A DNA stretch of 64,000 bases from Candidatus Eiseniibacteriota bacterium. GTDB taxonomy: Bacteria; Eisenbacteria; RBG-16-71-46; CAIMUX01; VGJL01. Location of the stretch: contig JBHGAY010000021.1 in the NCBI GenBank assembly GCA_041946735.1, positions 30,505 to 94,504 on the forward strand, written 5' to 3'. The notes under the pieces were generated by a model. That model saw nothing but the letters and a program-made list of their open reading frames with translations, did no database searches and was not told the origin of the DNA. Both the position numbers and the translations under genes were made by a program. Of the stretch, positions 12,486 through 64,000 are shown one piece after another (positions within the stretch are counted from its first letter, which is position 1; each line of letters starts with the position of its first letter).

Positions 12486-12626
12486 GAAACGCTCATGATG
12501 GTGATGGTTTCGAGAGCAGACGGGGCGCCTCCCCACCTCTTCCGGGGCGGTTATACTCCGGCCCTGACACTCAGGGTCCCGGCCCCGATGGGGCAGGGGT
12601 CCATCGGATTACACACGGAGGGTCGT

Positions 12627-24403: not shown

Positions 24404-24901
24404 ATGAACCGGCTTCCCGCCATCGCCTGGATCTTGGTCGCCGCGCTCGTGAGCGGCGCCGGTTGCTACACGGTTCTCCGCCATCCCGCCGCCGTCGACA
24501 TGACGCAGGCGGAAACCGGCGAGCCGCTCTCCTGCGCCGACTGCCACGCCGATGCCAACCTCTACCATCCCTACGCGTACGATCTCGGCTGGTACGGCTA
24601 CTACCCGCCCGCCTGGGCGAGCTACTACGCGACCCCGTGGTGGTACGACAGCTATTGGTACTACCCGCATGATGGGGGTTCGGACATTCCGCCCGCGGTG
24701 AGCGGCGGCCGCACGATCTGGAGCCGCGAAGGGGCGGGTGGCAGCAACGCTCCGCTGCCGACCCAGGGAAGCGGCGTGTCCAATCCGACGAAGGACAGGC
24801 CGAACGATCCCAACGACAAACCCGGCCGCGACGACGGCTCCAAGGACGACGACAAGAAAGACAAGGAGAAGAAGGACGAGCGCCGCCCCTGGAGGCGCTG
24901 A
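24404..24901 (+). CDS. Lipoprotein with CxxCH motif, Tyr/Trp-rich segment and charged disordered tail
   Basis: Lipobox-like SGAG-C, CADCH, YAYDLGWYGYYPPAWASYYATPWWYDSYWYY; own promoter and SD. Confidence 0.8.
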   Translation: MNRLPAIAWILVAALVSGAGCYTVLRHPAAVDMTQAETGEPLSCADCHADANLYHPYAYDLGWYGYYPPAWASYYATPWWYDSYWYYPHDGGSDIPPAVSGGRTIWSREGAGGSNAPLPTQGSGVSNPTKDRPNDPNDKPGRDDGSKDDDKKDKEKKDERRPWRR

Positions 24902-24926
24902 CCCGCAAACCGGCAAGGAGGAACCC

Positions 24927-37220: not shown

Positions 37221-37286
37221 TTTGAACCTCCCCGCCCCGGGTCGCCCGGAACGTCCGCTCCTCCACCCGGGCAGCAACAGTGCTCT

Positions 37287-49889: not shown

Positions 49890-51326
49890 CTAGCGCGCCC
49901 ACGGCGAAGGGAAGCCGCGACGCAGTCCGATCGTGGCGCGCCAGGCGACTGGCGGATCGGGATGGCCGTCCCCTTCTCCGTCCGGCGCATACGACGTCTC
50001 GAAGCGCGCCTCGGCGATCGTCCTCTCGTCGAGGTTGCGCCGCAGCGCGCCACCGAGGGTGGCGGACCTCTCGCGGTGCGCGCCGGGCTCCGGGGAGTGG
50101 ATCGTGCGCAGGCGCCACCAGAGCTGGGCGCGGTTCTGATTCCACGGGGGGCTCCAGAGGCTCGCGTGCACCGACACGGCGTCGCCTCCCATCGGATGCC
50201 CCATCACGTAGCCGCGGTAGTAGTAGTCGCGCTCGCCATACACGAGATGATTCTCGTACCAGTCGTTCGCGTCGTCCCAGGTCTCGGCCGTCTCGGCGAG
50301 AACGGTCCATCCGGCGACCAGCGCGGACAGTCCGTAGTGGTGCGCGACCGCCGTCGGCAGCGGACCCTGGAAGCTGTCCTCGCCTCCGTACTCCCAGAAG
50401 AGCCGCGCCCCCTCGAACCACTTTCCCTCGAGCCACTCGCGCGGCGTGCGCAGCTCGAGGCCGATCGAGGCCTTCTGATCGCTGTCCGCGGCGGATCGCG
50501 GCCCGACGCGATTCTCGTTGCGGCCGAGGAGGATGTCGCCGATGTCGCGCAGGGTCAGCTTCTCCGTGCGACCGCTGCCGCCGAAGAGGATCGTCCGCGC
50601 CAGCGACAGCTTCGCCCATCCCGCCGGCTCCCACTCGAGGCGCTGGCCGTGCAGCAGCGGATAGGGGACGACGCGATCGCGCTCGTCGAGATACCCGAGG
50701 AAGAGCGAGGCGTGGAAGCGCGCGGCGCTCCGCGACCCGCCGAAGGTCCAGGGGCGGATCGTCCGGATCGAGAGACGATCGAACGCCGGCGCCGTGCGGC
50801 CGAGGAGCAGGCTCCCCTCGTTGCCGTCCCCCCAGAAGAGCCGGGTCAGGCCGGCGCGCACCTCCGTCCGGCCGCGCGACCAGACCAGCGATCGCTCGAG
50901 CCAGTCGCCGCCGGAGCGATTCCCCTCGCCGATGCGGAACCGCCCGCCGAGATCGAGCCGCAGCCCGTGCGGGAACGGGACGTGCCCGTCGATCGCCGCG
51001 CGCAGCCGCACGCCGTCCCGCGCCCGAAGCCCGGAGGACTCCTCCACCGGAACCGGCCGGCGCACGTCCGCCCCCTCCATCAGGATCTCCGACGCGCGGG
51101 AAAGCGGCAGGTCGGTGTCTTCCGGGATTTCGGGGAGCGGCAGCATCGCGCCGGTCGGCGCCTCGGGCGGACGGAGAATCCGGTAGCGCTCGAGATCCCA
51201 GTCGTAGAACGGCGACTCGAGCGGCTGCGCCTCGACTCCCGCCACGACGAAGGCCGCCCCGGCGAGCAGGGCGGCCGCGAGGACGGCGGCGCGGACCGGT
51301 GGCGTCGCGACGCGCGAGAACGGCAT
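49890..51326 (-). CDS. wzi: Capsule assembly Wzi-family outer-membrane protein
   Basis: Signal peptide; FWGDGNEGSLLLGRTAP, LARTILFGGSGR, SDQKASI, EYGGED, MGHPMGGD. Confidence 0.75.
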   Translation of the reverse strand: MPFSRVATPPVRAAVLAAALLAGAAFVVAGVEAQPLESPFYDWDLERYRILRPPEAPTGAMLPLPEIPEDTDLPLSRASEILMEGADVRRPVPVEESSGLRARDGVRLRAAIDGHVPFPHGLRLDLGGRFRIGEGNRSGGDWLERSLVWSRGRTEVRAGLTRLFWGDGNEGSLLLGRTAPAFDRLSIRTIRPWTFGGSRSAARFHASLFLGYLDERDRVVPYPLLHGQRLEWEPAGWAKLSLARTILFGGSGRTEKLTLRDIGDILLGRNENRVGPRSAADSDQKASIGLELRTPREWLEGKWFEGARLFWEYGGEDSFQGPLPTAVAHHYGLSALVAGWTVLAETAETWDDANDWYENHLVYGERDYYYRGYVMGHPMGGDAVSVHASLWSPPWNQNRAQLWWRLRTIHSPEPGAHRERSATLGGALRRNLDERTIAEARFETSYAPDGEGDGHPDPPVAWRATIGLRRGFPSPWAR

Positions 51327-51340
51327 CGGCGGGGCGGGCC

Positions 51341-52375
51341 TCAGATCCTCCCCGCGCCGGCCAGGATCTCGACGTGGCCCGAGTTGCGCAGCGAGCGCTC
51401 CGCCGCCTCCAGGACCCGCACGACGCGCAACCCCGACTCCCCGTCGGCGCGCGGATGGCGGTCGTGCACGATCGAGCCGAGGAAGTCGCTCACCTCCGCC
51501 TGCAGCGGCTCGAACGACTCGATCTTCGGGGAGACGATGTCGCCTGTGCGGTAGGAAAGCTGGTACTCGCCGAAGGTGTCCGGGTCCTTGAAGTGCACCC
51601 CCTTGTCGAAGATCTTCACCTGCTCGAGATGCTCCGTGTCGTCGTAGACGAGCATCTTCGCATCGCCGACGATCGTCGTCCGGCGCAGCTTCGAAGGGGC
51701 GAGCCAGCTGACCTGCACGTGCGCGATCGCGCCGGAGGCGAAGCGGAGGAAGAGGAACGCGACGTCGGGAATGCCCTTCTGGACAAAATCCTTGCCCGTC
51801 GCGAGCACCTCCACGGGCGCTTCCTCCAGCCAGTAGAGGATCATCGAGACGTCGTGCGGGGCGAGATCCCAGATGACGCTGACGTCCTTCTGATGGAGCC
51901 CCAGGTTCACGCGGGTCGAGCTGATGTAGAAGATCTCCCCCAGCTCGTGCTGCTCGAGGATCTCCTTGATCTTGATGACCGGCGGACTGTACTGGAACGT
52001 GTGGCCGACCATCAGCACGCGCCGGCGCTTGTCGGCCTCCTCGATCAGGCGCATCGCCTGCACGCTCGAGGCCGCGAACGGCTTCTCGACGAAGACGTGC
52101 TTGCCGTGCTGCAGCGCCTTCAGCGCGAGATCGAAATGCTTCGAGAGCGGGGTCGCGATCATCACCGCGTCGATGTCGAGGCGTGTCAGCACCTCGTCGG
52201 TGTCGACCGTCATCTCCATCGCCGGATAGCGAGCCGCGATCTTCTGTAGCTTGCCTGCATCCAGGTCGCAGACGACGACCTTGTTGCAGAGCCGGTTCTC
52301 GAACAGGTTCCGGACCAGGTTCGGTCCCCAGTATCCGGATCCGATCACCGCAACGTTCACCAACCCGTCGACCAC
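51341..52375 (-). CDS. Gfo/Idh/MocA-family oxidoreductase (nucleotide-sugar dehydrogenase type)
   Basis: VIGSGYWGPNLVRN, HVFVEKP, WDLAPHD, VSWLAPSK. Confidence 0.92.
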   Translation of the reverse strand: MVDGLVNVAVIGSGYWGPNLVRNLFENRLCNKVVVCDLDAGKLQKIAARYPAMEMTVDTDEVLTRLDIDAVMIATPLSKHFDLALKALQHGKHVFVEKPFAASSVQAMRLIEEADKRRRVLMVGHTFQYSPPVIKIKEILEQHELGEIFYISSTRVNLGLHQKDVSVIWDLAPHDVSMILYWLEEAPVEVLATGKDFVQKGIPDVAFLFLRFASGAIAHVQVSWLAPSKLRRTTIVGDAKMLVYDDTEHLEQVKIFDKGVHFKDPDTFGEYQLSYRTGDIVSPKIESFEPLQAEVSDFLGSIVHDRHPRADGESGLRVVRVLEAAERSLRNSGHVEILAGAGRI

Positions 52376-52379
52376 CGCC

Positions 52380-53933
52380 TCACAGCCCTCCCTTCCCGAA
52401 CAGGATCACCGGAACCGTGCGCAAGAGCAGTTTCGAGTCGAGGGTGAGCGACCAGTTGCCAATGTAGAAGAGGTCGAGCAGCACCATGTCCTCGAACGTG
52501 ACGTAGGAGCGGCCTGTGACCTGCCAGAGGCCGGTCATGCCGGGAGTGACGTCCAGCCTCCGCTGCTGCCATTCCTCGTACAGGTCGTACTCGAAAGGAA
52601 GGCAGGGGCGCGGCCCGACCAAGCTCATCTCCCCGCGGAGGACGTTCCAGAGCTGCGGCAGCTCGTCAAGGCTCATGCGGCGTAGCAACCGCCCGACCCC
52701 GGTGATCCGCGGATCGTCGGTGAGCTTGTAGATCTTCCGCCCGCTCAGATCGACCCCCGCCGGCGCCCGGTTCTTGATGAACTCCTCGAGGTAGCGCTGG
52801 TGCTCCTCGTCCTCCTCCGGGCTCTGCGTGACGACCATGCTGCGGAACTTGTAGAACGTGAACGGCTGGCCGCCCTTGCCGATCCGGGTCTGCTTGAAGA
52901 GGACCGGCCCCGGGCTCGAGAGCTTGATCGCCGCGGCGACCGCCAGCAGGAACGGGAGGATGAGGAGCCCCCCGAGGCCGGCGCCGGCGACGTCGATCGC
53001 GCGCTTGATCCGCAAGGCGAGCGCCGACGGCTCGGTCTCGCTCACCTGCAGCAGATGCAGGCCGCGCACCGTGTCGAACGGAGCGGATTCGACGATCCGG
53101 TCGAGGACGTGCGAGAGCACCTTCACCTGGACGCCGCGTTGCCGCAGCGCGTCGGAGAGCCGGACGATTTCCTCGCGCGGAATGTCCGGGCGGGCGACGA
53201 CGAGAAGGTCCGCCTGGAGGTCCTCCACGAGATCCGGAAGCTGCGCGGCCGACGCGATCCGGAAGGGATGGAGCGACCGGATTTCCGGCGGCTGATCGTC
53301 GACGAACGCGACGACGACCGTCCCGCGCCGCGAGACCAGCCCCTGCGCCAGGTCGCGCGCCGGCAGTCCTCCGCCGAGAATGACGACCCTTCCCTCGCCC
53401 GGGAAGTGCCGGGCCGGGACGAGCGGCACGAGGACCGGCCGCAGGCCGACCATCCAGAGCGCGAAGGCGAGATGGTAGAGCAGGACGGCGAGCCGCAGGC
53501 CGGTCGAGGCGTCCGACGCGATCAGAAACGCGCTGCCGAGCGCAATCCCGCAGGACCAGAGGGCGGAGCGAACCCCCGCTTCGATCTGCCGCCGCCGCGA
53601 GTGGAGGACGCCGTGACGGTAGAGGCCGAAGGAAGCGGCGACCGTCAGGCTGAGCGGCACGAGCGCCAGCGAAAGGGCGAGCGGAAGCGTTCGAATCCGC
53701 GCGAGCGAGTCGAGCGGGGAGAGCAACGCGCCGGCTGCGAGGAACAGCGACAAGGCGAGCGCGATCGCCAGAGCGGGAACGTCCAGAATGAGCAACCACC
53801 CGAGCGAGGGGCGGGGAATACGTCTGGCATATCCGGGCCGCGGCGACGGGACGGGTGGTGTTGCGATCGGCGGGTTGCCGGAGGGCGAGGTCAGTCGATG
53901 CCCAGACCGGGCCGCGATGGACCGATCGGCCAA
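52380..53933 (-). CDS. Polyprenyl-phosphate glycosyl-1-phosphate transferase (WcaJ/WbaP-type priming sugar transferase)
   Basis: N-terminal TM segments; KRAIDV, YKFRSM, DPRITGVGRLLRRMSLDELPQLWNVLRGEMSLVGPRP, PGMTGLWQVTGRS; TTG start uncertain. Confidence 0.93.
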   Translation of the reverse strand: MADRSIAARSGHRLTSPSGNPPIATPPVPSPRPGYARRIPRPSLGWLLILDVPALAIALALSLFLAAGALLSPLDSLARIRTLPLALSLALVPLSLTVAASFGLYRHGVLHSRRRQIEAGVRSALWSCGIALGSAFLIASDASTGLRLAVLLYHLAFALWMVGLRPVLVPLVPARHFPGEGRVVILGGGLPARDLAQGLVSRRGTVVVAFVDDQPPEIRSLHPFRIASAAQLPDLVEDLQADLLVVARPDIPREEIVRLSDALRQRGVQVKVLSHVLDRIVESAPFDTVRGLHLLQVSETEPSALALRIKRAIDVAGAGLGGLLILPFLLAVAAAIKLSSPGPVLFKQTRIGKGGQPFTFYKFRSMVVTQSPEEDEEHQRYLEEFIKNRAPAGVDLSGRKIYKLTDDPRITGVGRLLRRMSLDELPQLWNVLRGEMSLVGPRPCLPFEYDLYEEWQQRRLDVTPGMTGLWQVTGRSYVTFEDMVLLDLFYIGNWSLTLDSKLLLRTVPVILFGKGGL

Positions 53934-54090
53934 CAGAGTCCTCCCATTCTTAGCCCCTCGATGCCGAAATCCCGAAGAACAGTCAAGGCCTATTGATACA
54001 GATGGAAAAGGCCGGCGCAAGGACAATTCCCCTTCCCAGGGGAGGTCCGCGCGCCGGCCGTGCCGGTCGATCCCTCGCTATTCCTATTGC

Positions 54091-55821
54091 TTACGACATC
54101 GACATCCCGGCTTCGGAGGCTTCGATCGAGACTCCGCGCGCGCGCGCCTCGCGCTCGACCGCCTCGCGGCCGCGCGGGGACGGCGGCAGCCAGACGCAGA
54201 AGCGGCTGCCCTTGCCCTTCTCGCTCTCGACCCAGATCCGGCCCGCGTGCTCCTCGACGATCCCCTTGCTGATGACGAGGCCGAGTCCGGTACCCCCCGC
54301 CTTTCGGGTGTTCGAGGAGTCGAGCTGCTGGAACTTCAGGAACAGCCGCGGCAGGTCCTCGGGCGCGATACCGATCCCGTCGTCGGCGACCTCGATCCGT
54401 ACGCCGCCGTCCTCGGCGACGGCGCGGACGCGGATCTCGCTCCCCGGCTCGGAGAACTTCACGGCGTTCGACAGCAGGTTGTCGAGGACCTGGATCATCC
54501 GGAGCTCGTCGACCCAGACCCGCGGCAGCCCCGCCTCCTTCTCCAGGCGGATCTCGATCTCCCGGCGCGCCGCCATCCCTCGCATGTCCTGCGCCGCGTT
54601 CTCGAGGAATCGAGAAGGATCGATCTCCTCGAAGCTCATCGAAAGCCGCCCCGCCTCGAGCTTGCTGAAGTCGAGGATGCTGTTGATGAGCTTCTCGAGC
54701 CGGTCGACGTTGGTGGAACAGATCTCGAGCAGCTCGGCCTGCTGCGCCTCGAGCTTGAAGTAGCGCGGGTCGTTCAGGATCTCGAGGCTCCCCTTGATCG
54801 AGGTCAGCGGCGTGCGGACCTCGTGGGAGACGACGGCGACGAACTCGCTCTTCAGCCGGTCCAGCTCGCGCGCCTTCTCGTAGGAGCGGACGTTGCGGAT
54901 GGCGATCGACGCCATCGCGGCGAGCTGCGGGAGCAGATCGGGGGTGTCCTCCTCCATGCGCTCGCCGGGGGAGGAGAGCAGCGCCAGCGTCCCGATCGCC
55001 TGGTCCTCGAGCAGCATCGGGACGACGTAGACCTGCCTCGGCTTCGCGCCATCCTCCCCGGCCGTCTCGGCGAGGGTCTCGGCGATCATGCTCTTCGAGA
55101 GGAGCGCCTTGGCGTTGGGGTTCGCGAGCCGCTTCACGTAGCGTTCCCGCTCCCCCTCGACCGCGGCGAGTCCTCGGTCCACCCAGCAGGTGAGTTGTCC
55201 CGTCATCTCGTCGAGCAGGAAGAGCAGCCCCTCGCTCGCGCGGCAGAGTCCGAGGCTCCGCTCCACGATGCGCGAGAGGGTCGCCTCGAGCTTCAGGCTC
55301 TCGATGATGTCCTGCGCGATCTCGTAGAGCGTGCGCTGGCGCGCGCGCGCCTCCTCGGCGATCTTCTTGCGGATCTCCCCCTCGCGGCGTTCGCGCAGCG
55401 CGAACGCCCGCCACTGGAGGGCGCGCGAGAGGGACGCCTCCAGCTCGCCGAGTTGGAACGGCTTCTGCACGAAGTCGTAGGCCCCCTTGCGGAGCGCCTC
55501 GATCGCGTTGAAGACCGTCGCGTTGCCGGTCAGGAGGACGACGGCGACGTCGGGATCCTTCTCCTTGGCGCCGCGCAGGACTCCGAGGCCGTCCATCCCG
55601 GGAAGGTTCAGGTCGGTCAGGACGAGGTCATAGTTCTCCGCCTGGATCTTCGCGAGCCCGTCCTCGCCGGTCCCGGCGAGGTCGACGCGGTAGGGGTACT
55701 CGGAGAGGAAGTCCTGCAGCAGGTCCAGCACCGGCTCCTCGTCGTCGACGACCAGGATGCGGGCTCCGGGAAAGGTGAAGCTCTGCGTCTCGGTCGAGAC
55801 CGATCCCTGGATCTCTTCCAT
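54091..55821 (-). CDS. Cytoplasmic hybrid sensor kinase REC-GAF-HisKA-HATPase
   Basis: ILVVDDE, LTDLNLPGMDG, FVQKPF; VVSHEVRTPLTSIKG; NLLSNAVKF, DDGIGI, GGTGLGL. Confidence 0.95.
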   Translation of the reverse strand: MEEIQGSVSTETQSFTFPGARILVVDDEEPVLDLLQDFLSEYPYRVDLAGTGEDGLAKIQAENYDLVLTDLNLPGMDGLGVLRGAKEKDPDVAVVLLTGNATVFNAIEALRKGAYDFVQKPFQLGELEASLSRALQWRAFALRERREGEIRKKIAEEARARQRTLYEIAQDIIESLKLEATLSRIVERSLGLCRASEGLLFLLDEMTGQLTCWVDRGLAAVEGERERYVKRLANPNAKALLSKSMIAETLAETAGEDGAKPRQVYVVPMLLEDQAIGTLALLSSPGERMEEDTPDLLPQLAAMASIAIRNVRSYEKARELDRLKSEFVAVVSHEVRTPLTSIKGSLEILNDPRYFKLEAQQAELLEICSTNVDRLEKLINSILDFSKLEAGRLSMSFEEIDPSRFLENAAQDMRGMAARREIEIRLEKEAGLPRVWVDELRMIQVLDNLLSNAVKFSEPGSEIRVRAVAEDGGVRIEVADDGIGIAPEDLPRLFLKFQQLDSSNTRKAGGTGLGLVISKGIVEEHAGRIWVESEKGKGSRFCVWLPPSPRGREAVEREARARGVSIEASEAGMSMS

Positions 55822-55851
55822 CGTCCCTTCCTCCTCCTGAAGCGGCCGTCG

Positions 55852-57201
55852 CTAGGCCGCGGCGGCCGCGGAGAGGTCTTCGTCTTCCTCCACCCCGAGA
55901 GCTTCGCGGTCGCCGGGATCCTCGACTGCATCGAAGCCGGCGCCCTGCGCGGCGGCGCCGCCGGCGACCCCCGGCCTGGCGAACCGCACCGCGCGGTTCC
56001 GGCCTCCCCGCTTGGCCTCGTAGAGCCCGATGTCGGCGCGGCGCAGAAGCTCCTGCGCCGTCCCGGCATCCTCCGGGAAGGCGGCGACCCCCGCGGAGAC
56101 GGTGAGCTTCTTGCGCCGCGGGAACGTGTGCTCCGCGATGACCGCCCGGAGGCGCTCGGCCGCCATCATCGCATGATCGCCGTCGGTGTCGGGCATCAGA
56201 ACGAGGAATTCCTCGCCGCCGTAGCGGACCGCCAGGTCCGAGCTGCGGGCGGAGCGCTGCAGCAGCTTGCCGAAGTCCGCGAGCACGCGGTCGCCGACCG
56301 GGTGGCCGTGCTGGTCGTTGATCCTCTTGAAGTGATCGACGTCCAGGGTGACGAGGGCGAGCGGGCGGCCGTAGCGGCGCGCGCGGTCGACCTCCTGGGC
56401 GAGATGCTGGAGGAAGTGGCGGCGATTGCAGAGGCCGGTCAGGTCGTCGGTGATCGCGAGCCGCGCCATCTCCTGGTACATGAGGAAGCGCTGCAGCACG
56501 GCGGCCGCCTGCCCCGCGGCGAGGATCGCCATGCGGAGGTGGTCCTCGGTGAAGGTCTTGGGGCGGGAGTGGCAGAGGTTCAGCACCCCGATCAGCTCCG
56601 CCTGGACGAGGAGCGGCACCGAGAGGAAGGAGCCGACCTCGGTGCCGCCCGCCCGCCGTCCCGCGTGGAGGTCGGCGAGGAGGATCGGCTTCTGCTGCTT
56701 CGCGACCCAGCTCGAGAAGCCGAGGCCGAGGTCGAACTTGACCCCGCCGATCAGGTCGACCACGTCTCCCTTGCGGGCGGCGACCTCCAGGCGCTTCTCG
56801 TCGCTCTTGATCAGGAAGAGGGTCGCGTGCTCGTAGGGGATCGCCTGCTGGACGAGGTCGAGGAGCCGCGCGAAGAGCTTCTCGCGGTCGTCGGTCGTCT
56901 GGGTGAGGCGGGCGATCTCGTAGAGCACCTCCAGCTCCACCCTTTCGCGAACGTCTCCCGCGACCTTTCCCCGCCGGATCACCTGGATGATCTTGTTGTG
57001 CACCGTGTGAGCGGCGGTGAGGACCTCGCTCGCCCGCTTCTGGGAAGCGGCGCTCATCACCTGCTGGACCAGCCCCTCGCGCTCGCGAGCGGAGATCAGC
57101 CCTTCCTCCTCCAGGGTCCGCAGGAGCCGCTGCTCCCCCTTGCGGAACTTCTCGGTCATGTCCTGGAGCTGCCTCGGCCCGGTTCCGTTCCGTCGCGTCA
57201 T
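55852..57201 (-). CDS. GAF-GGDEF diguanylate cyclase
   Basis: GAF SFLSVPL...IGVLNL; TDDLTGLCNRR, DVDHFKRIND..GH..GD, RSSD I-site, GGEEF; true start may be the ATG at 57159. Confidence 0.95.
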   Translation of the reverse strand: MTRRNGTGPRQLQDMTEKFRKGEQRLLRTLEEEGLISAREREGLVQQVMSAASQKRASEVLTAAHTVHNKIIQVIRRGKVAGDVRERVELEVLYEIARLTQTTDDREKLFARLLDLVQQAIPYEHATLFLIKSDEKRLEVAARKGDVVDLIGGVKFDLGLGFSSWVAKQQKPILLADLHAGRRAGGTEVGSFLSVPLLVQAELIGVLNLCHSRPKTFTEDHLRMAILAAGQAAAVLQRFLMYQEMARLAITDDLTGLCNRRHFLQHLAQEVDRARRYGRPLALVTLDVDHFKRINDQHGHPVGDRVLADFGKLLQRSARSSDLAVRYGGEEFLVLMPDTDGDHAMMAAERLRAVIAEHTFPRRKKLTVSAGVAAFPEDAGTAQELLRRADIGLYEAKRGGRNRAVRFARPGVAGGAAAQGAGFDAVEDPGDREALGVEEDEDLSAAAAA

Positions 57202-57302
57202 CGGTCCTCTCCTCCTGAGTCGATCATGAGCGTCCGAGCGGATCCAGCCGCCCGCGCTCGTGCCCCTCTCCTGGCGAATCTGGCGAATCGGGCGGGATCC
57301 GA

Positions 57303-57758
57303 CTAGGCTGCGCGCCTCTCGGCCTCCTCACCATCGCGGCCTTCTTGGCCGCCGTCGTGGCCGCTCTCGCGGCCGGCGTCGTGGCCGGCGTCGTAGCCGC
57401 CCTCGTAGCCGCCGGCACCCTCGCCGCGGCCTTCCATGCGGATCGGATCGATGCGCAGGAAGTGCGGTTTCGCGAACCCTCCGGCGGCGTTCGCGCGCAG
57501 CTCGTGCGAAGCGGGCGCCGCCGGCGTCCGCAACGTCCCCTCGATCGTGCGAAGCTCGGTCCGGATCTCCTCGCGGGCCGCCGAGGTCTCGCGTTGCGCG
57601 GCGTCCCGGCGGCGGGCGTTCGCGCGCGACTCCCGTCGCGTCAGGAGCATCGCCAGTCCGGCTCCGAGGAACAGGCCGGCGGCCGCGGCCAGGACCTCCC
57701 GCACCCAGGGATCGACGAGCGCCTGGGCGACACCGCTCGCGAGCGGCGCGGCGCTCAT
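57303..57758 (-). CDS. Single-TM hypothetical protein with GxxxG-repeat tail
   Basis: ATGA overlap with the fliA stop; TM VLAAAAGLFLGAGLAMLL; coiled coil; GYEGGYDAGHDAGRESGHDGG. Confidence 0.65.
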   Translation of the reverse strand: MSAAPLASGVAQALVDPWVREVLAAAAGLFLGAGLAMLLTRRESRANARRRDAAQRETSAAREEIRTELRTIEGTLRTPAAPASHELRANAAGGFAKPHFLRIDPIRMEGRGEGAGGYEGGYDAGHDAGRESGHDGGQEGRDGEEAERRAA

Positions 57759-58558
57759 CGCAGCGCTCCCAGCACCGGATCCCCGTACATCGCCTTGCGG
57801 ACCCGGCCGCGCAGCCTGGAGATCGCCTTCGTGTGGATCTGCGAGACGCGGGACTCGGAGATGTGGAGCGTCTCGCCGATCTCCTTGAGCGTCATCTCCT
57901 CGTAGTAGTAGAGCGCGACGACGAGTCGTTCCTGCTCGGTCAGGCCGTTGATCGAGGAGAGCAGGAGCTTCTTCTCCTCTTCTTCCTCGATCCGCTCCAG
58001 CGCGTCGGGACTCTCCTCGTCCTCGATCATGTCGGCGAGGCCGGAGAGGTCGTGATCCTCGTCCACGCTGACCGACTGGTCGAGCGACAGGACGACGGTG
58101 CCGCGAACCTCCTCCATCATCCGGAGGAGGTTCGGAAGCGTCATCCCCATCTCCCGCGCGATCTCGATCTCGCTCGCGGCGCGGCCGAGCTTCTGGTCGA
58201 GGCCGCAGCAGACGCGCTCGAGCGTGCGCGCCTTGCGACGCGTGGTGCGCGAGACCCAGTCCATGCTGCGCAGCTCGTCGAGCACCGCCCCCTTGATCCT
58301 CCAGATCGCGTAGGTCTCGAACTTCGTGCCGCGCGACGGGTCGAACTTTTCGAGCGCGTCGAACAGCCCGATGATCGCCGTGTTCAGCAGGTCGTCCTTC
58401 TCGATCGACTTCGGCAGGCCGGTCGCGATCCGATCGACGACGTACTTGACCAGCGGCGCGTAGCGCTTGAGCGACTCGGCGCGACGGCGCTCCTTGGGCG
58501 GCGCGTCCTTCGGCACGATCTGATGCTGCAGCCTCATCAGGGCGTTCGATTCAGGCAT
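57755..58558 (-). CDS. fliA: FliA/WhiG-family sigma-28 factor
   Basis: YAPLVKYVVDRI, GLFDALEKFDPSRGTKFETYA.WRIKGAVLDELRSMDW, LYYYEEMTLKEIGETLHISESRVSQIH. Confidence 0.95.
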   Translation of the reverse strand: MPESNALMRLQHQIVPKDAPPKERRRAESLKRYAPLVKYVVDRIATGLPKSIEKDDLLNTAIIGLFDALEKFDPSRGTKFETYAIWRIKGAVLDELRSMDWVSRTTRRKARTLERVCCGLDQKLGRAASEIEIAREMGMTLPNLLRMMEEVRGTVVLSLDQSVSVDEDHDLSGLADMIEDEESPDALERIEEEEEKKLLLSSINGLTEQERLVVALYYYEEMTLKEIGETLHISESRVSQIHTKAISRLRGRVRKAMYGDPVLGALR

Positions 58559-58715
58559 GGAACCTCCCGCGGCACCGCCGGGGCTCGCGGCCGCCGGCTC
58601 GTTCGATCGCGTGATGCTCGATCGGCTCGATGGACTTGACCGGAACGCTGGACTCGACCGGAACGATGAACTCGGCCGGAACGGGCGGCTCGGCCACGGC
58701 GCGGCGCGCGCTCAT
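58551..58715 (-). CDS. Putative 54-aa small protein with Pro-Val repeats, coupled to flhG and fliA
   Basis: ATG overlaps the flhG TGA (ATGA) and its TGA overlaps the fliA start (ATGCCTGA); MSARRAVAEPPVPAEFIVPVESSVPVKSIEPIEHHAIERAGGREPRRCRGRFHA. Confidence 0.45.
   Translation of the reverse strand: MSARRAVAEPPVPAEFIVPVESSVPVKSIEPIEHHAIERAGGREPRRCRGRFHA
58631..58695. repeat. About 3.5 copies of an imperfect 18-bp tandem repeat
   Basis: TGGACTTGACCGGAACGC / TGGACTCGACCGGAACGA / TGAACTCGGCCGGAACGG / GCGGCTCGGCC. Confidence 0.85.
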
Positions 58716-59698
58716 GCCGGGATCCGCTCCCGCTCTCGCTCTCGCCCGTTCCGGGCGCCGAAACTCCACCCGGGGACCGGCATCACGCCGGGGTCCGGAT
58801 CCCCGGACTCGAGGAGCCGGGCGGCCAGCTCTTCGATGGAGAGCGACGCGGCGCACCGGGGATAGAGCCGCAGCAGCGGCTCCTGGCGGCGAACGGCCGA
58901 GCCGACCGCGCCGTCGACGGGAATGCATCCGAGATAGACCGGATCGATCGAGAGGAAGCGGCGGGCGACGTCGCGGATGCGGCGGGCGACGCTCGCCCCT
59001 TCCTCCGCGTCGTGCGCCTGGTTGACGACCAGGTAGGGCGGGGGCGGAGACGCGGGGCGGTGCGCGCCGCCTCCGTCATGGGCGGCGGCGTAGCCGAGCG
59101 CGCGGAGAATCGCGTAGGCGCTCGTGAAGGCGGCCGGCTCGGGCGTCGTCACGAGGATCCTTTCCGAGGCGCACCGGGCGAAGTGCATCGTGGTGCGGCC
59201 GAGACCCGCTGCGGTGTCGAGGAGGATCAGATCGGTCTCGTCCTCGATCTCGTGCAGGGAGCGATAGAGGCGTTCGCACGAGAGCTCGTCGAGGTTCGCC
59301 ATCTCCTCGACCCCCGGCGCGGCGGGCAGGAGCGTCACGTCCTCGCGCGTACGGACGACCACCTCGCTCGCCCGGCGCGTGCCGCGGACGATGTCCTGCG
59401 ACGTGCATCCGGTGGGCTCCACGCCAAGCAGGGGATCGAGGCCGCTCATCCCAAGGTCGCCGTCCACCAGCAGGACGGAGAGGCCGCGCCGGCGCATCGC
59501 GATTCCGAGATTCGCGACGAGGGTGCTCTTGCCGACTCCGCCCCGCCCGCTCAGCACGGCGATCGTGCGGATCGACGGCCGGCGCGAGCGCGGACTCGGG
59601 CGTCCGTTGCAGGAGAGCAGGCGAAGCGCGGGCCCCTCGGGCGGCTGCTCGGGCTTGCCTCTCCGGATCGTGACCGGGGTGCTCCGTCCGCTCGCCAT
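58712..59698 (-). CDS. flhG: FlhG/FleN-like MinD-family ATPase (divergent)
   Basis: IAVLSGRGGVGKS, DGDLG, GVEEMANL, LDTAAGL, VTTPEP...AYA, VVNQA, VARRFL, AVRRQEPL; immediately upstream of fliA. Confidence 0.8.
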   Translation of the reverse strand: MASGRSTPVTIRRGKPEQPPEGPALRLLSCNGRPSPRSRRPSIRTIAVLSGRGGVGKSTLVANLGIAMRRRGLSVLLVDGDLGMSGLDPLLGVEPTGCTSQDIVRGTRRASEVVVRTREDVTLLPAAPGVEEMANLDELSCERLYRSLHEIEDETDLILLDTAAGLGRTTMHFARCASERILVTTPEPAAFTSAYAILRALGYAAAHDGGGAHRPASPPPPYLVVNQAHDAEEGASVARRIRDVARRFLSIDPVYLGCIPVDGAVGSAVRRQEPLLRLYPRCAASLSIEELAARLLESGDPDPGVMPVPGWSFGARNGRERERERIPA

Positions 59699-59787
59699 TC
59701 TCTTTCTGCCCCTCTCTTCCGGCCGTCCGGGCTCCCGATCTTCCGGGCGCCTCGCCGGGGGGCGCTCCCCCGGCGGGAAGGGCGAAA

Positions 59788-59803
59788 TGCAACCGCCGTG
59801 CCC
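59788..59803 (-). promoter_or_regulatory. sigma54 (-24/-12) promoter motif upstream of flhG-fliA
   Basis: GGGCACGGCGGTTGCA: GG-N10-GC spacing exact, with GGCACG and TTGCA consensus. Confidence 0.72.
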
Positions 59804-59944
59804 GATTCACGACCGATTCGCGATCAGCGAGCCGGACGGCCAAACCGCGATGGGGCGATGGATTGCGGATGCGGGCGCGCACGGTCCGGCGGCGAGCGGA
59901 GCCGCGCGGAGGCGGGGGCGCGGTCAATCCTTACCGGGGGTCGG

Positions 59945-60985
59945 TCAGAAACCGGCCGGCCCGGCGGGGGTCTCCCCGGCCGGCGGGCTCGCCGGCGCAT
60001 GGCGGATCGCGATCCGCAGCCGCCCGTCGGCCGCGTCGGCGCGTGCAGGAAGCACGAAGAGGCGGCGCTGGCGGAGCGCTTCGCGAACGATCCGCCGTTG
60101 GCGGGCGTCGGCAGACGCGAGCGGCGGGGCATCGAGCACGATCGCGACTCCCGGGGGGGCCGCCGGCGCCGCGAGCCGGATGCGATGCGCCGGGCCGTCC
60201 GGCTCGATGCGCGCGCGGCATCCTCCGGGAACGAGCAGGACCTGCCCCGGCGCGAGACGGTCGCCATCGCGCGCGATCCGGACCGGCAGGCGTGTCGCGC
60301 GATCGAGCCCTTCGCGAAGTCCCCGCGTGTGGCGCGGCGGATGCGGGACGCTCAGGACGAGCGCTCGCTGGTCGCGCCGCCCGTAGGAGTGAGCCGTGAG
60401 GAATGCGGTCGCGCGGAGAAGGCCGCGCAGCCTGACATGCAGCCAGAGGACCGGGAAGGCCTGGATCTCCTCCTCGCCGGCGAAGCGGCCGCGCAGGCGC
60501 AGGCGCGCCGCCGAAGCGGGGAGGATCTTCTCCTCCAGGTCGGGGGAGATCCATGCAAACTGGCTCGGCCGCTTCTCCCTCTTCAGGAGGATGTCGGCGG
60601 CGCCGAGCCGCAACGCCTCCCACGCGATCCGTCCCCCTTCGACCGTGTCAGAGGCGAGACCGAGGATGCGCATGCCGCCCGGGCGAGGGCGCGGCAGCGC
60701 GCGAAGCACCGTGAGGCCGTCCATGTGCGGCATCTCGAGGTCGAGGAGGAGCAGGTCGGGCTCGAGCGCGCGGATTACGCGGAGCGCCTCGGCGCCGTTC
60801 GATGCGGCAGGGAGGAACGCCAACCCGGGCTGGCGCCGGAGGAGGCGCGAGCGCAGCTCGGCGACCACCGAAGCCGAATCGTCGACGATCAGGCAGCGGA
60901 GCGGGGCGCGCTCCCGGCCGCTTTCTCGGCGCGCATGGGCGCCGTCTCCGCCGTCTCCGCTGTCCCTGTAAGCCGCTCGTTCCAT
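59945..60985 (-). CDS. CheB-like response regulator with degenerate, truncated methylesterase domain
   Basis: CheB-type REC (IVDDS, LLLDLEMPHMDGL, EALRLGAADILLK); remnant PHPPRHTRGLREGLDRATRLPVRIARDGDRLAPGQVLLVPGG; no GxSTGG and no LTGMGxDG. Confidence 0.75.
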   Translation of the reverse strand: MERAAYRDSGDGGDGAHARRESGRERAPLRCLIVDDSASVVAELRSRLLRRQPGLAFLPAASNGAEALRVIRALEPDLLLLDLEMPHMDGLTVLRALPRPRPGGMRILGLASDTVEGGRIAWEALRLGAADILLKREKRPSQFAWISPDLEEKILPASAARLRLRGRFAGEEEIQAFPVLWLHVRLRGLLRATAFLTAHSYGRRDQRALVLSVPHPPRHTRGLREGLDRATRLPVRIARDGDRLAPGQVLLVPGGCRARIEPDGPAHRIRLAAPAAPPGVAIVLDAPPLASADARQRRIVREALRQRRLFVLPARADAADGRLRIAIRHAPASPPAGETPAGPAGF

Positions 60986-61070
60986 CCCGTTCTATCCATC
61001 AGCACTCCGCGATCGACTCTTTAGCGCCGACTTGCGGGCGCTGGGGCGCTGCGCGGGCCGCGAGCCCCGC

Positions 61071-63195
61071 TCAGCTCTCCCACACGGGCGGCGCCACCGG
61101 CTCCCCGAAGCGCTCGACGATCCGGTGGCCGAGCAGCCGCAGCATCGGAGGCTTGCCGCCCGGCCGGACTCCCAGCTCCCAGACGATCTGCTGCGGCGCG
61201 CGGCCGTAGGCGCGGATCCATCCCTCGTGCACCCCGCGCCGGTGATGGAGCCAGCAGAGCGCCGTCTGGTTCGCGAGCGTGTTGCGGCCGCCACGCGCCC
61301 GCGCGTGCAGGTGGTGGCTCTCGAGATGCTCGCGCCCGCCGCAACCGGGCGCCTGGCAATGCCAGAGGTCCCGCTCGAGGATCCGCGCCTTCGCCGCGGG
61401 CCGTTCCGGATCCTCGAGCCTCCACTGTTTCAGACAGGCATCGATCATGAGGAGCAGGATCTCCCACGGCTCGAGCCAGGGCGCGTCCAAGCGCCGCCGC
61501 ACCTCGCGGAACGCGGCAGCCAGATCGCGTGCCGTGGGGTCCGGCAGCCAGAGCCGCCGGCGCTCCCAGCCGCGCGGGAGCGCAAACATTTTCCCGACCG
61601 ACTTCGGCAGCAGATCGGGCGGCTCGTTGCCCGGGATCGGGCTTTGCTCGAGCAGGATCTCCGTGAGCAGGTCGATCCTCTTGCGGACGGAAGGGTTCTC
61701 CGCCGGATCCCACGAGGCGCCTTCGACGATCTGCTCGGACCCGCGCGCGCGAAGCTCGCGCCGCAGGCGCTCCTCGGTCCAGCCCGCGATCGACAGGATC
61801 TCGACCTCCAGGTCCTCGACGAGATCCCGCTTGGCGCCCGGCTTCTTGTTCCGCGTGGCGATCGCATGGTCCGCCATCGCCACCCGCGCGTTCTGGCGCA
61901 GCTCGATGCGCGCCTCCCGCGCGGTCAGGACCGACATGCGCTCGAGCAACCAGCGCATCTCCCGCTCGGTGTTCGACTGCGCGTGCACGGAGTAGGCGAT
62001 CTCGCGGGAAACCCAGCCGCGGAGGAAAGCGCGCGCGAGGAGCGGGTGATCGCCGAAGAGTTCCGCGTCGTCGAGAAGGGCGTCCATCGTCTTTGCGCAG
62101 ATGTCGAGGCGGGCCTCGGCGAACGCTCCCATGTCGGGGTAGCCGAGCATCTCCAGGACACAGAAGGACTGCAACGTCGCGAGGATCCGGCAGCGTAGGA
62201 TGTGCAGACCTCGGCCCATCCGCTCCATCGCCGCGATCTGTCGCGCCGCTTCGCACCGATCCTCGGGGATGGCGCCTCGGGCGAGTTCGCCGTCCCGCTT
62301 CACCCAGGCCTGCAGCTCGGCCAGGGTCGCCAGAGCCTCCTCGATCTTCGCTTGCGGCACCCGCACGCGCATCGGCTCGGGGCGCGCGACGCGATTCGGT
62401 TGCGTCTTGGGCCGCGGCGGGCTCGGCCCCTTCTCGCCGCCGCCCGCGAGGCCGGTCTCGGCGAGCATCGCCGCGATCACCTCGTGCTCGGGCGCGTCGT
62501 AGCCGATCATCCTGCGGCCGGCCTCGTAGAGCCAGTCGAGGGAAAGGAAGAGGATCTTGGGGCCGGCGATACCGATCGTCGCGCCCCGCGCCTCGTCCGG
62601 CGGCTCGTCCCGCGGCTCCTCCCGCGCCTCCTTGCGCGCCTCGTCCCGCGGCTCCTCCCCGCGCCTCCCCGCAGGACTCCGCCGGCTTCCTCCGATCCGC
62701 CCGGACGAGGTCCTTGAGCCGCCGCACCGGCATCTTCGAGGCGAGATCGAGCCAGACGCGGACCGCCTTCTCCTCGCCCGCCGCGCGGCGAAGCGCCGGA
62801 GCGACGGCGAGCAGCGAGTATTGCGTCACCGATCCGCCGAGAAACGCTGCGGCCGCCTGCGGGATGTCGCGGCAGAGGCGGCCGAGATTCATCAGGTCAC
62901 GGGTGCGCGTCTCGCTGATCCTCGCCATCTCCGTGGCGAGATCCTCGATTCTCACGAAGCCGGTCTGAAGAACGTTGCGCCTGATGTGAAGCAGGCGCTC
63001 GCCCATCGAGAGGAGGATGCGGTGCTCCATCGGCCGGGCGGCGACGAGTCCGCCGAGGAGCATCGCGATCACTTCGTCCGCGTGCGGGAAGAGCTTCAGC
63101 TGCTCTCGATCCCTGCGCCGGTGCCGGCGCGGGCCGATGACGTAGCTGCCGCGCAGCGAGCGGCCGGCGAGACCTCGAGGGAAGCGACGAGCCAG
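61071..63195 (-). pseudogene. DUF222-like HNH endonuclease split by a 1-bp frameshift at about 62657-62660 (pseudogene or sequencing error)
   Basis: The 5' frame is protein-like up to RKPAESCGEAR, then coding continues in the 61071..62510 frame (EEPRDEARKEAREEPRDE...); C-terminal RDLWHCQAPGC...ESHH...GG.N...N...LCWLHH; possible CTG start at 63195 after GGAGGA. Confidence 0.78.
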
Positions 63196-63248
63196 GGCGA
63201 TCCTCCGGAAAGCAGAGAGGGAGACGACGAAAACGCACGAACAATCGT

Positions 63249-63264
63249 TGCAAGAATGGTGCCT
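63249..63264 (-). promoter_or_regulatory. sigma54 (-24/-12) promoter motif upstream of the HNH gene
   Basis: AGGCACCATTCTTGCA: exact GG-N10-GC spacing, in a lower-GC intergenic region. Confidence 0.68.
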
Positions 63265-63600: not shown

Positions 63601-64000
63601 TCAGGCCTCCCTCGCGAGGCGCCCGCGCCGCGAACGGCGGGGAGGCCGAGCGCGCATGTCGATCTCCGGCGGTCCGGCGGCCGGTTGCCGGCCCCTCGCG
63701 GCCGCCGGACCGGTGGAGCGGCAGCCGCCCGGGCGCCCGAGGATGGAAAGCTGCCTTTCCGGGTCTTCGCGGCGGCCGGACGCGCTGAGACCCGGTCCTC
63801 CCCCCGCACCGCGGCGGCCGGACGCGCTGAGACCCGGACTTTCCCCCGCATCACGCCGCTCGCGCGCGTGAGAACGCCATGTTCCCGCGTCACTATGGCG
63901 TCTCGGCGCGCCCGAACGCCATGTTCCCGCGTCACCATGCCGCTCGCACGCGCTCGAACGCCAGGTTCCCGCGTCACTACGCAGCTCGCACGCGCTCGAA
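63601..64000 (-). CDS. Possible 3' end of an upstream gene carrying 14-aa repeats
   Basis: Frame open from the window edge to the TGA at 63601 (...DAGTWRSSACERHG...EDPERQLSILG...RLAREA); an alternative open frame ends at 63528. Confidence 0.3.
   Translation of the reverse strand, partial: SSACELRSDAGTWRSSACERHGDAGTWRSGAPRRHSDAGTWRSHARERRDAGESPGLSASGRRGAGGGPGLSASGRREDPERQLSILGRPGGCRSTGPAAARGRQPAAGPPEIDMRARPPRRSRRGRLAREA
63768..64000. repeat. 42-bp-period tandem repeat array with two unit types, running off the window edge
   Basis: CGCGGCGGCCGGACGCGCTGAGACCCGG at 63768 and 63810; GAACGCCA(T/G)GTTCCCGCGTCAC at 63872, 63914, 63956, with another copy starting at 63998. Confidence 0.9.

Follow-up and report, generated by a model that had tools for sequence, protein, structure and literature searches.

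We identified, in the genome of an uncultured member of Candidatus Eiseniibacteriota (G000; 4.9 Mb in 72 contigs, ~68% GC), a block of regulatory genes encoding a flagellar-type sigma factor (sigma-28), an FlhG-type ATPase, a diguanylate cyclase, a hybrid sensor kinase, and three sugar-related proteins. On balance, we favor the reading that the locus represents the regulatory portion of the flagellar cluster native to Eisenbacteria, that it is likely a sigma-54-dependent operon, and that its output is predicted to be non-flagellar. The block lies in a window of 64,000 nucleotides (the whole stretch of DNA that was analyzed; G000:C14:30505–94504), the end of which coincides with the end of its contig. 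The block occurs in nearly the whole phylum, in members with and without flagella, and therefore likely runs something other than flagellum assembly. A preliminary description of this DNA, drawn up from its letters, had seen in it flagellar and chemotaxis regulators rewired to signaling by cyclic di-GMP (c-di-GMP) and to capsule genes; as an observation it was partly confirmed, and its interpretation is partly supported by the results below.

We analyzed conservation in a phylum sample of 151 Eisenbacteria genomes of at least 85% completeness and in a near sample of 40 relatives up to class level (41 genomes with G000). Orthologues of sigma-28 (E 1e-60 or better; identities 52–83%) were found in 143 of the 151 genomes, FlhA in 53, and FlaF in 27, and sigma-28 was kept in 94 of the 98 genomes that gave no FlhA hit. 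Three genomes of the window’s own family, G002 (100% complete), G003 (97%), and G005 (99%), had no FlhA, FliG, or flagellin and kept sigma-28, as did G010, G032, G035, G036, G037, G039, and G040. Two types of flagellar gene set occur in the phylum, many of whose members carry neither, and the sigma-28 block is nearly constant across it. In the loci of 27 relatives that were used to compare gene order, fliA was accompanied by the cyclase in 25, FlhG in 23, the kinase in 18, the priming transferase in 18, the oxidoreductase in 17, and Wzi in nine; one of the two loci without a cyclase is that of G036, where the kinase directly follows fliA, and the other ends at a contig edge. The linkage flhG-fliA-cyclase-kinase-transferase-oxidoreductase that the preliminary description had pointed to is conserved across the class.

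Pairwise ratios of nonsynonymous to synonymous substitution (dN/dS; Nei–Gojobori) within the window’s family, which are rough because dS (0.7–1.8) is near saturation, were 0.11–0.24 for FliA (0.11–0.16 in pairs of non-flagellate genomes), 0.15–0.20 for the oxidoreductase, 0.16–0.29 for the kinase, 0.20–0.32 for the cyclase, 0.24–0.40 for the transferase, 0.28–0.60 for FlhG, 0.32–0.53 for Wzi, and 0.32–0.74 for the CheB-like protein. FliA is 77–83% identical within the family. In a tree of 47 FliA sequences, the Eisenbacteria clade had 97% support by the Shimodaira–Hasegawa-like approximate likelihood ratio test and the clade of the window’s family 99%, and the label non-flagellate required at least three changes on well-supported branches; in a sister pair of which one member has no flagellar genes (G010) and the other is flagellated (G012), the terminal branches measured 0.13 and 0.12. 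Sigma-28, the cyclase, and the kinase are conserved phylum-wide under purifying selection, with or without flagella. The earlier supposition that sigma-28 has been retained by selection, and is not decaying, is borne out both by its dN/dS values and by its persistence in FlhA-negative genomes.

In the window, the block is part of a run of ten head-to-tail minus-strand genes (49890–62510) with third-position GC contents of 0.85–0.94. The intergenic gaps range from −4 to 153 nt, with the exception of a 246-nt gap between the CheB-like gene and flhG, which carries a sigma-54 motif. Gene calls were based on third-position GC (GC3) and domain calls on Pfam and NCBIfam. The features, in the direction of transcription and followed by those beyond the run, are as follows.

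61071–62510, minus strand: 479-aa protein with a weak C-terminal HNH motif (Pfam HNH, E 0.0028)
59945–60985, minus strand: receiver (REC) domain plus degenerate CheB-like protein, a pseudo-methylesterase (Pfam CheB_methylest, 34.5 bits)
59788–59803, minus strand: sigma-54-type promoter motif GGGCACGGCGGTTGCA, 90 nt upstream of the flhG start
58712–59698, minus strand: FlhG/FleN-type MinD/ParA ATPase (closest solved relatives FleN and FlhG)
57755–58558, minus strand: sigma-28, FliA/WhiG family (Pfam sigma-70 regions 2, 3, and 4; TIGR02479)
57303–57758, minus strand: 151-aa protein with one predicted membrane helix (hydropathy; no Pfam or NCBIfam match)
55852–57201, minus strand: GAF-GGDEF diguanylate cyclase (Pfam GGDEF, 163 bits, plus GAF)
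54091–55821, minus strand: hybrid sensor kinase REC-GAF-HisKA-HATPase (Pfam domains)
52380–54026, minus strand: polyprenyl-phosphate glycosylphosphotransferase, or priming transferase (Pfam PF02397 Bac_transf, 209.5 bits; TIGR03025)
51341–52375, minus strand: Gfo/Idh/MocA NAD-dependent sugar oxidoreductase (Pfam PF01408, PF22725, PF02894)
49890–51326, minus strand: Wzi-like outer-membrane capsule-anchoring protein, last gene of the run (Pfam PF14052, 78.7 bits against a cut-off of 30.1)
63249–63264, minus strand: second sigma-54-like motif AGGCACCATTCTTGCA, within inserted AT-richer DNA, of doubtful function
63768–64000, no strand: 42-nt tandem repeat arrays at the contig end (Tandem Repeats Finder)

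The run had been described as eleven co-oriented genes, ten of which stand. The eleventh, a small open reading frame (ORF) at 58551–58928 (125 aa), is not a gene: it overlaps the 3′ end of flhG out of frame, is arginine-rich, was passed over when genes were called on GC3, and lacks a homologue in the 27 relatives’ loci. An 18-nt tandem repeat (3.7 copies, 58617–58683) fills the flhG-fliA spacer, where flagellated relatives have a small ORF of 92–120 aa (L093:9686–9964, L091:10885–11247). Terminator-like sites in the region were not above chance (6 against 4.5 expected), and the same was true of a sigma-70 scan.

The gene order of relatives points to the origin of the block. Flagellated relatives from the same taxonomic order carry fliM-fliN-fliP-fliQ-flhB-flhA-flhF-flhG-(small ORF)-fliA, in which fliA is of the window type, and FlhA lies 2–5 kb from the window-type sigma-28, whose gene ends the flhB-flhA-flhF-flhG-fliA operon, in families f2, f3, f4, f8, f12, and f16. 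Further upstream in G014 and G015 are FliW, CsrA, flagellin, a PAS-kinase, and an NtrC-type activator that is 58–59% identical to the activator of the window’s family; the CheB-like gene comes next in G015, lies upstream of the paralogous pair in G019, and was not found in the G014 stretches. A second kinase-activator pair, structural genes, flhBAFG-fliA, and the cyclase then follow in G014 and G015. In G003 and G005, members of the window’s family, the order is FliW-CsrA-(FlgM-like)-PilZ-kinase-activator-CheB*-FlhG-FliA-(small protein)-cyclase-kinase-priming transferase-Gfo-Wzi-valyl-tRNA synthetase (ValRS). By this comparison, the window’s family has kept both ends of the native cluster, with the structural middle gone. 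G038 (L098, C1 464–2797), which has no FlhA or FliG, retains FlgN, FliW, and CsrA together with a short gene resembling flagellin (31 bits), all immediately ahead of its kinase-activator-sigma-28 block, and is a further stage of the same reduction.

No flagellar structural gene was found among the 45 genes called in the window, as had been noted before; the genome, however, carries a complete flagellar cluster on contig C8. This cluster encodes FlgC, FliE, FliF, FliG, FliH, FliI, FliJ, FliK, FlgE, FliL, FliM, FliO/P, FliR, FlhB, FlhA, FlhF, FlhG, and FliA, together with three flagellins, FlaF, FlbT, a sigma-54 activator, and an unnamed 122-aa ORF at the flgB position, and C8 also holds a chemotaxis cluster with an intact CheB. 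The C8 cluster is complete, has its own flhF, flhG, and fliA, and belongs to a FlaF/FlbT-associated type different from the native one. Its FlhG and FliA are 34% and 36–38% identical to the window copies, and in the tree its FliA has a very long branch and is placed outside the clade of the phylum. Among the 40 relatives, the C8-type sigma factor was found only in G001 and G004 and the window type in nearly all (57–83% identity). The earlier picture of a cell that lacks flagella and keeps a reduced motility regulon does not hold for G000, which has the C8 flagellar cluster with its own FlhF, FlhG, and FliA and three intact CheB genes.

In the phylum sample, FlaF and FlhA occurred together in 24 genomes (families f10, f11, f17, and f18, and G000), and FlaF was never found with the native type. 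The FlaF-linked FlhA scored ~823–846 bits where it was unsplit and is distant from the sigma-28 locus (in G100 the two are 180 kb apart on one contig), and the 29 FlhA-positive, FlaF-negative genomes are of the native type, mostly at 851–900 bits. We dropped the idea that the C8 flagella are a rare, family-specific acquisition (FlaF in 3 of 41 genomes), as the same type is found in f10, f11, f17, and f18. A third class of FHIPEP/FlhA-like protein (757–784 bits), 38–44% identical to both flagellar types, occurs in family f2 (G006:C12:53322–55286, G009:C12:2714629–2716590, G013:C2:21294–23255, G017:C4, G025:C40) and may be a further flagellar or injectisome-type export gate. In G004, the oxidoreductase (L005 16150–17183) and the FlhA of the FlaF-type cluster (L217, G004:C3) are each split over three frames, and are either frameshifted pseudogenes or indel errors of a long-read assembly.

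The window sigma-28 exceeded the cut-offs of TIGR02479 (257.3 against 189.6 bits) and NF005413 (218.3 against 201); its best E-value among NCBIfam models came from the WhiG model, with a score below that model’s cut-off, and its nearest relatives outside Eisenbacteria are actinobacterial FliA/WhiG proteins (45–50% identity). FliA regions 2 and 4.2 show no variation among 18 orthologues, which come from both flagellate and non-flagellate genomes. Together with the flagellin promoter motifs of relatives, this invariance is indirect evidence that the window sigma-28 may recognize TAAA-N15-GCCGATAA-type promoters. Of the flagellar gene set flhA-flhF-flhG-fliA, flhA and flhF are absent at the window locus; no SRP54-type FlhF was found there, and the sole flagellar FlhF of G000 sits in the C8 cluster. 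The closest solved relatives of the window FlhG are FleN (5J1J, E 6.5e-40) and FlhG (4RZ2, 7e-37), compared with 2.6e-22 for MinD, and its orthologue in flagellated relatives (40–52% identity) sits between flhF and fliA. Its Walker A motif is deviant, reading GRGGVGKS, with the signature lysine replaced by arginine; all 23 orthologues and the C8 paralogue read GKGGVGK.

The CheB-like protein was rightly described as degenerate. Its Pfam CheB_methylest match covers only positions 27–81 of the 174 of the model, its score against NF001965 (114.5 bits) is below the cut-off of 293, and in alignment with Salmonella CheB (1A2O) the catalytic Ser164 is replaced by Ala and His190 by Pro, with a C-terminal third that cannot be aligned. 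The catalytic triad is missing in seven of seven CheB-like orthologues aligned with true CheB, including the copy of flagellated G019. The receiver domain in G000 keeps the DD pair, the acceptor Asp, and the conserved Lys, which are partly lost in G001, G005, and G019. Because triad-less copies are also found in flagellated relatives, the loss of the triad is old and not recent decay, and the protein is a pseudo-enzyme of long standing in this cluster and not the product of a newly broken chemotaxis gene. Three true CheB genes (169–224 bits) lie elsewhere in G000.

Evidence for a sigma-54 input comes from the spacer upstream of flhG. Two sigma-54 motifs had been reported, and both are where they were said to be, each one mismatch from TGGCAC-N5-TTGCW. 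Such one-mismatch matches are not above chance across the whole window (12 against 10.2 expected). The motif GGCAYG-N4-RTTGCA is nevertheless found upstream of flhG in all six family genomes, in spacers that are otherwise unalignable, with the versions GGGCACGCCGGTTGCA, GGGCATGCAGATTGCA (in three genomes), and GGGCATGCCGATTGCA besides GGGCACGGCGGTTGCA. When the six family flhG spacers were dinucleotide-shuffled, the motif appeared in 0–4 of 2000 shuffles per spacer, and the whole 4.9-Mb genome holds only 36 such motifs. A similar motif, TGGCATGTAGGTTGC, stands ahead of flhB in eight flagellated loci, and several non-flagellate loci have a sigma-54-like motif ahead of flhG or fliA. This pattern fits a sigma-54 promoter that would formerly have driven flhBAFG-fliA and would now drive flhG-fliA; its actual use as a promoter is predicted. 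The sigma-54 gene rpoN is present on contig C13, and a pair of a PAS-kinase and an NtrC-type activator lies just upstream in relatives and, in G000, on the abutting end of contig C4. The activator is directly upstream in all five family relatives whose contig reaches that far. The C4 activator scored below every NCBIfam equivalog cut-off (FlgR/FlbD ~300 bits against 750). The conserved motif, the activator pair, and rpoN support the proposed sigma-54 input. The second motif is of doubtful function: sigma-54 motifs precede the CheB-like gene in G001, G003, and G005, and we rejected the motif at 63249–63264 as the orthologue of that promoter, since it cannot be aligned with them.

Contigs C4 and C14 very probably abut, because the same 42-nt repeat ends both, occupying the last ~300 bases of C4, after its activator gene, and appearing as its reverse complement at the end of C14. 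The end of C4 encodes FliW (130431), CsrA (130945), the FlgM-like protein (131359–131898), PilZ (131939), the kinase (132831), and the activator (134344–135840), and the HNH gene and the repeats would be inserted between the activator and the CheB-like gene. The HNH gene has no homologue in the 27 relatives’ loci and is a lineage-specific insertion at this place. Paralogues lie on C1 (111226–112551, 30% identity) and, as an 86%-identical fragment, at the very start of C45, a pattern that suggests a repeated and possibly mobile gene at which assemblies break. The repeat units, each of which holds a short palindrome (GCGT..ACGC), separate the sigma-54 activator gene from the HNH gene. Relatives have no 42-nt repeats at this place; the repeats may serve as binding sites for the activator or belong to the inserted element.

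We searched for outputs of sigma-28 with the motif CTAAAG-N15/16-CCGA, derived from the upstream regions of flagellin genes in flagellated relatives, 19 of 20 of which carry it. The strict motif occurs at four sites genome-wide in G000, one of which, CTAAAG-N16-GCCGATAG, lies directly upstream of motA (C20). A looser motif gave 108 hits against 35 in the control, of which 13 were intergenic; the intergenic sites precede flagellin, motA, an MshEN gene, kinases, tetratricopeptide repeat (TPR) proteins, a CheY-like gene, and also rpoA, a set that is suggestive only as a sigma-28 regulon. The MshEN/T2SSE gene (C34 in G000) has TTCAG-N16-GCCGATAT upstream in all five family orthologues, including those of non-flagellate G002 and G005. 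The flagellin promoters of the C8 cluster, TCAAG-N15-CCGAT, have the same general sigma-28 form.

A candidate anti-sigma factor is encoded between csrA and pilZ. FlgM is the top Pfam hit for this gene in all four family genomes that were compared (E 1.6e-4 to 0.11), with scores of 13–22 bits that are all below the cut-off of 25, and when a profile of the four proteins was compared with solved structures, an FlgM chain ranked first (E 0.018); a whole-genome Pfam search of G000 for FlgM returned nothing at E 0.001. We predict with moderate confidence that the gene is FlgM-like. It is conserved in the family, including genomes without a flagellar export apparatus, and sigma-28-like sites lie upstream of it in G003, G004, and G005 and not in G000.

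The small membrane protein is translationally coupled to fliA, its start overlapping the fliA stop by 4 nt. Its helix is predicted at residues ~22–40, followed by a basic stretch (best 19-residue hydropathy window 2.14). Weak homologues (21–37% identity) occupy the same place in four of the five other family genomes, with none in G003, and flagellated relatives have a non-membrane, acidic gene of ~105 aa instead. The analogy with swrB drawn in the preliminary description comes down to position, the gene being poorly conserved and missing in one of six family genomes. The motif of the anti-sigma factor RsiG, E(x)3S(x)2R(x)3Q(x)3D, had no match to a relaxed regular expression in the ORFs downstream of fliA in the 27 loci and the window, and after the FlgM-like gene was found the small protein took lower priority as an anti-sigma candidate.

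The cyclase has an RYGGEEF active site with an RxxD inhibitory site (I-site; RSSD) five residues upstream and scored 175 against a cut-off of 37.4 with TIGR00254. Conservation of its N-terminal ~100 aa (RRNGxG...QKRSS) extends across the class; a word-based search for homologues of this domain gave 20 hits, all with the same architecture, and a look-up in the ESM Atlas gave only helical look-alikes with scores below 0.8. The kinase, whose orthologues are 72–76% identical within the family, begins 30 nt after the cyclase stop. Of the sugar genes, the transferase scored 361.4 against a cut-off of 295.55 with TIGR03025, aligned from residue 89, and its true start is probably downstream of the TTG start of the longest ORF; the best named match of the oxidoreductase is UDP-GlcNAc 3-dehydrogenase (NF040723, 178.7, below the cut-off of 450), and its orthologues in 17 of the 27 loci are 58–85% identical. 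Downstream of Wzi are ValRS (after 100 nt), a DUF4139 protein, and UvrB. The polysaccharide part of the run is three genes, not a capsule locus, so that of the capsule genes described earlier only these three remain. C-terminal Ala or Ala-Ala is common in the block (...AAAAA, KAAA, or RAAA in the cyclase, ...RRAA or KKAA in the small protein, ...PA in FlhG) and may be a shared degradation tag or merely a GC-rich codon habit.

We propose that flhG, fliA, the small membrane protein, the cyclase, the kinase, the transferase, the oxidoreductase, and Wzi would form one sigma-54-dependent operon, whose flhG-upstream promoter would be activated by the neighboring PAS-kinase/NtrC-type pair on the abutting contig end. 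Co-transcription of the downstream genes would cause sigma-28 and c-di-GMP synthesis to rise together. Sigma-28, restrained by the FlgM-like protein encoded beside csrA, would drive a small regulon of signaling and surface genes, with a c-di-GMP-binding MshEN pseudo-ATPase and motA as candidate targets, and the cyclase, the kinase, and the three sugar genes would tie the switch to the cell surface.

Several observations weigh against this proposal. The sigma-28-type promoter found ahead of flagellin genes is absent from the window and the 27 related loci (28 loci), and the idea that sigma-28 switches on the cyclase and sugar genes is therefore without support; co-transcription by read-through from the sigma-54 promoter is the simpler reading for these genes. 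In ten non-flagellate genomes the strict motif gave 1–8 hits each and was rarer than a reversed control, and the 11 genes behind it share no theme. A weak sigma-70 promoter is another possible reading of the MshEN site. FlhG has been lost in four class-level relatives and has lost its signature lysine in G000, the CheB-like gene has been lost in G004, and both FlhG and the CheB-like protein are fast-evolving (dN/dS up to 0.60 and 0.74, with dS near saturation). Given the loss of the lysine and the insertion of the HNH gene into the block, part of it may be decaying. In G039, x10, and x14 the GGDEF motif has degenerated while RxxD is kept, so that cyclase activity is not universally retained, and what comes after the three sugar genes is housekeeping genes in place of a full polysaccharide export cluster. 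Both the operon structure and the use of the promoters are predictions from sequence, and the join of C4 and C14 was made by the shared repeat and synteny, without a spanning read.

We also weighed other readings of the locus. In a conventional second tier, which we consider rather unlikely, the window sigma-28 and FlhG would serve late motility genes of the C8 system (motAB, chemotaxis, perhaps flagellins) alongside the C8 FliA, and the cyclase would be linked to them as in the usual motile-to-sessile coupling of many flagellates. The promoter of native-flagellin type directly upstream of motA, the identity of FliA regions 2 and 4.2 to those of flagellated relatives, the similar form of the C8 flagellin promoters, and the retention of FliW, CsrA, and the FlgM-like gene beside the locus are all consistent with such a role. 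It is harder to reconcile with the flhF-flhG-fliA set that the C8 cluster has of its own, with the retention of the module in 94 genomes without an FlhA hit and in three 97–100% complete family genomes without FlhA, FliG, or flagellin, and with branch lengths and dN/dS that are alike in flagellate and non-flagellate carriers. The least probable of the readings considered here is that the block is a decaying remnant of a deleted native cluster with no function of its own, beside which the cyclase, kinase, and sugar genes would merely be useful old neighbors. Low dN/dS and 77–83% identity of FliA within the family, open fliA orthologues in 143 of 151 genomes, invariant DNA-recognition regions, and a sigma-54 motif that persists in six of six family genomes despite unalignable spacers all argue against decay. 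The signs that would suit it are the CheB-like protein without its triad and the loss of its gene in G004, the Walker A lysine-to-arginine change, which is found in G000 only, the inserted HNH gene and tandem repeats, the dN/dS of 0.3–0.7 in FlhG and the CheB-like protein, and the poor conservation of the small membrane protein; of these, the triad-less CheB-like state is old, being shared with flagellated relatives.

The form given in the preliminary description, a developmental cascade in a flagellum-less cell from sigma-54 to sigma-28 and on to the cyclase and capsule genes, seems to us very unlikely. Its sigma-54 step accords with the conserved motif, and the class-wide linkage and the many relatives without flagellar genes are also in its favor. 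Its starting point conflicts with the complete flagellar cluster of G000, and the step from sigma-28 to the cyclase and polysaccharide genes fails for want of a sigma-28-type promoter upstream of the cyclase, kinase, or transferase in any of the 28 loci; in the window, gaps of 4–101 nt suit read-through better than a second promoter tier. A bolder idea, to which we give only slightly more credence, is a flagellum-independent, phylum-wide switch in which sigma-28 and its GAF-GGDEF neighbor form a direct c-di-GMP-sensing pair, the N-terminal domain and I-site of the cyclase holding or releasing sigma-28, as a second, independently evolved system beside RsiG–WhiG. If true, an old checkpoint circuit (sigma-54 activator, FlhG, FlgM-like protein, and FliW-CsrA) would govern surface or lifestyle genes where the flagellum is absent or of a foreign type.

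Elsewhere in the window, a 2085-aa SprA-like gene (type IX secretion translocon) lies at 6279–12536, and two well-called genes of 495 and 462 aa, at 24738–26225 (plus strand) and 35889–37277 (minus strand), have no Pfam match at E 1e-5.

The closest precedent, as far as the consulted part of the source goes, is found in non-flagellated Legionella. There, the L. longbeachae subclade, which lacks the flagellar regulon, has retained FliA, FleN, FleS/FleR, and FlgD, L. oakridgensis still has fliA and flgM, and in L. pneumophila a GGDEF/EAL gene belongs to the FliA regulon (PMC5655016). In both groups, sigma-28, a FleN/FlhG ATPase, a sigma-54 two-component pair, and an FlgM-like gene outlast structural genes. 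The Eisenbacteria regulators differ, by comparison with what that part of the source describes, in forming one block joined to cyclase, kinase, and sugar genes and in being near-universal in their phylum (143 of 151); moreover, G000 has a second, different, and complete flagellar system, and it is in relatives of G000 that structural genes are lacking. In Actinomycetota, according to the consulted portions of two papers, WhiG represents a sigma-28 family freed from flagella and placed under c-di-GMP control through the anti-sigma factor RsiG, with roles in development or type IV pili, and WhiG1 stays with flagellar clusters whereas WhiG2 does not (PMC8325347, PMC12871210); the RsiG motif searched for above was taken from the same material (PMC8325347). 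As far as those portions allow a comparison, the two systems share a sigma-28-family factor tied to c-di-GMP, but no RsiG motif was found beside the Eisenbacteria fliA, where the link to c-di-GMP is the adjacent cyclase and an FlgM-like gene is present instead.

The tail of the Bacillus subtilis fla/che operon (cheB ... sigD-swrB) likewise has a sigma-28 gene followed by a gene for a small single-pass membrane protein, but the Eisenbacteria protein has no similarity to any Pfam or NCBIfam family and is confined to the window’s family. In Pseudomonas, FleN affects exopolysaccharide through FleQ. The window FlhG is nearest to FleN of P. aeruginosa, and a sigma-54 motif and an NtrC-type activator lie upstream in the window’s family as they do in the FleQ/FleN and FleSR (FlrBC) system; no FleQ-type master regulator was identified, and flhA and flhF are deleted from the window locus. 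The order flhA-flhF-flhG-fliA in flagellated Eisenbacteria relatives matches the P. putida operon flhA-flhF-fleN-fliA, as given in the part of the source consulted (PMC6424431). Judged by title and abstract, none of the papers that a literature search on Eisenbacteria and flagella brought up is about this module. The present analysis adds that the block exists side by side with a second and complete set of flagellar genes, and it contributes counts for the whole phylum, the sigma-54 motif that is conserved in the family, and the FlgM-like gene.

The flagellar regulatory hierarchy is a textbook checkpoint circuit tied to its organelle. A whole candidate phylum keeps most of this circuit, namely the sigma-54 activator pair, FlhG, sigma-28, the FlgM-like gene, and FliW-CsrA, joined to a c-di-GMP cyclase and a kinase whether the flagellum is native, of another type, or missing. 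For annotation, this is a warning that calls of fliA, flhG, fliW, csrA, and “cheB” in Eisenbacteria are no evidence of motility. How an FlgM-type anti-sigma factor would be relieved without a flagellar export gate is a puzzle, and the phylum offers a natural three-way comparison of what a checkpoint circuit does after its organelle has been lost.

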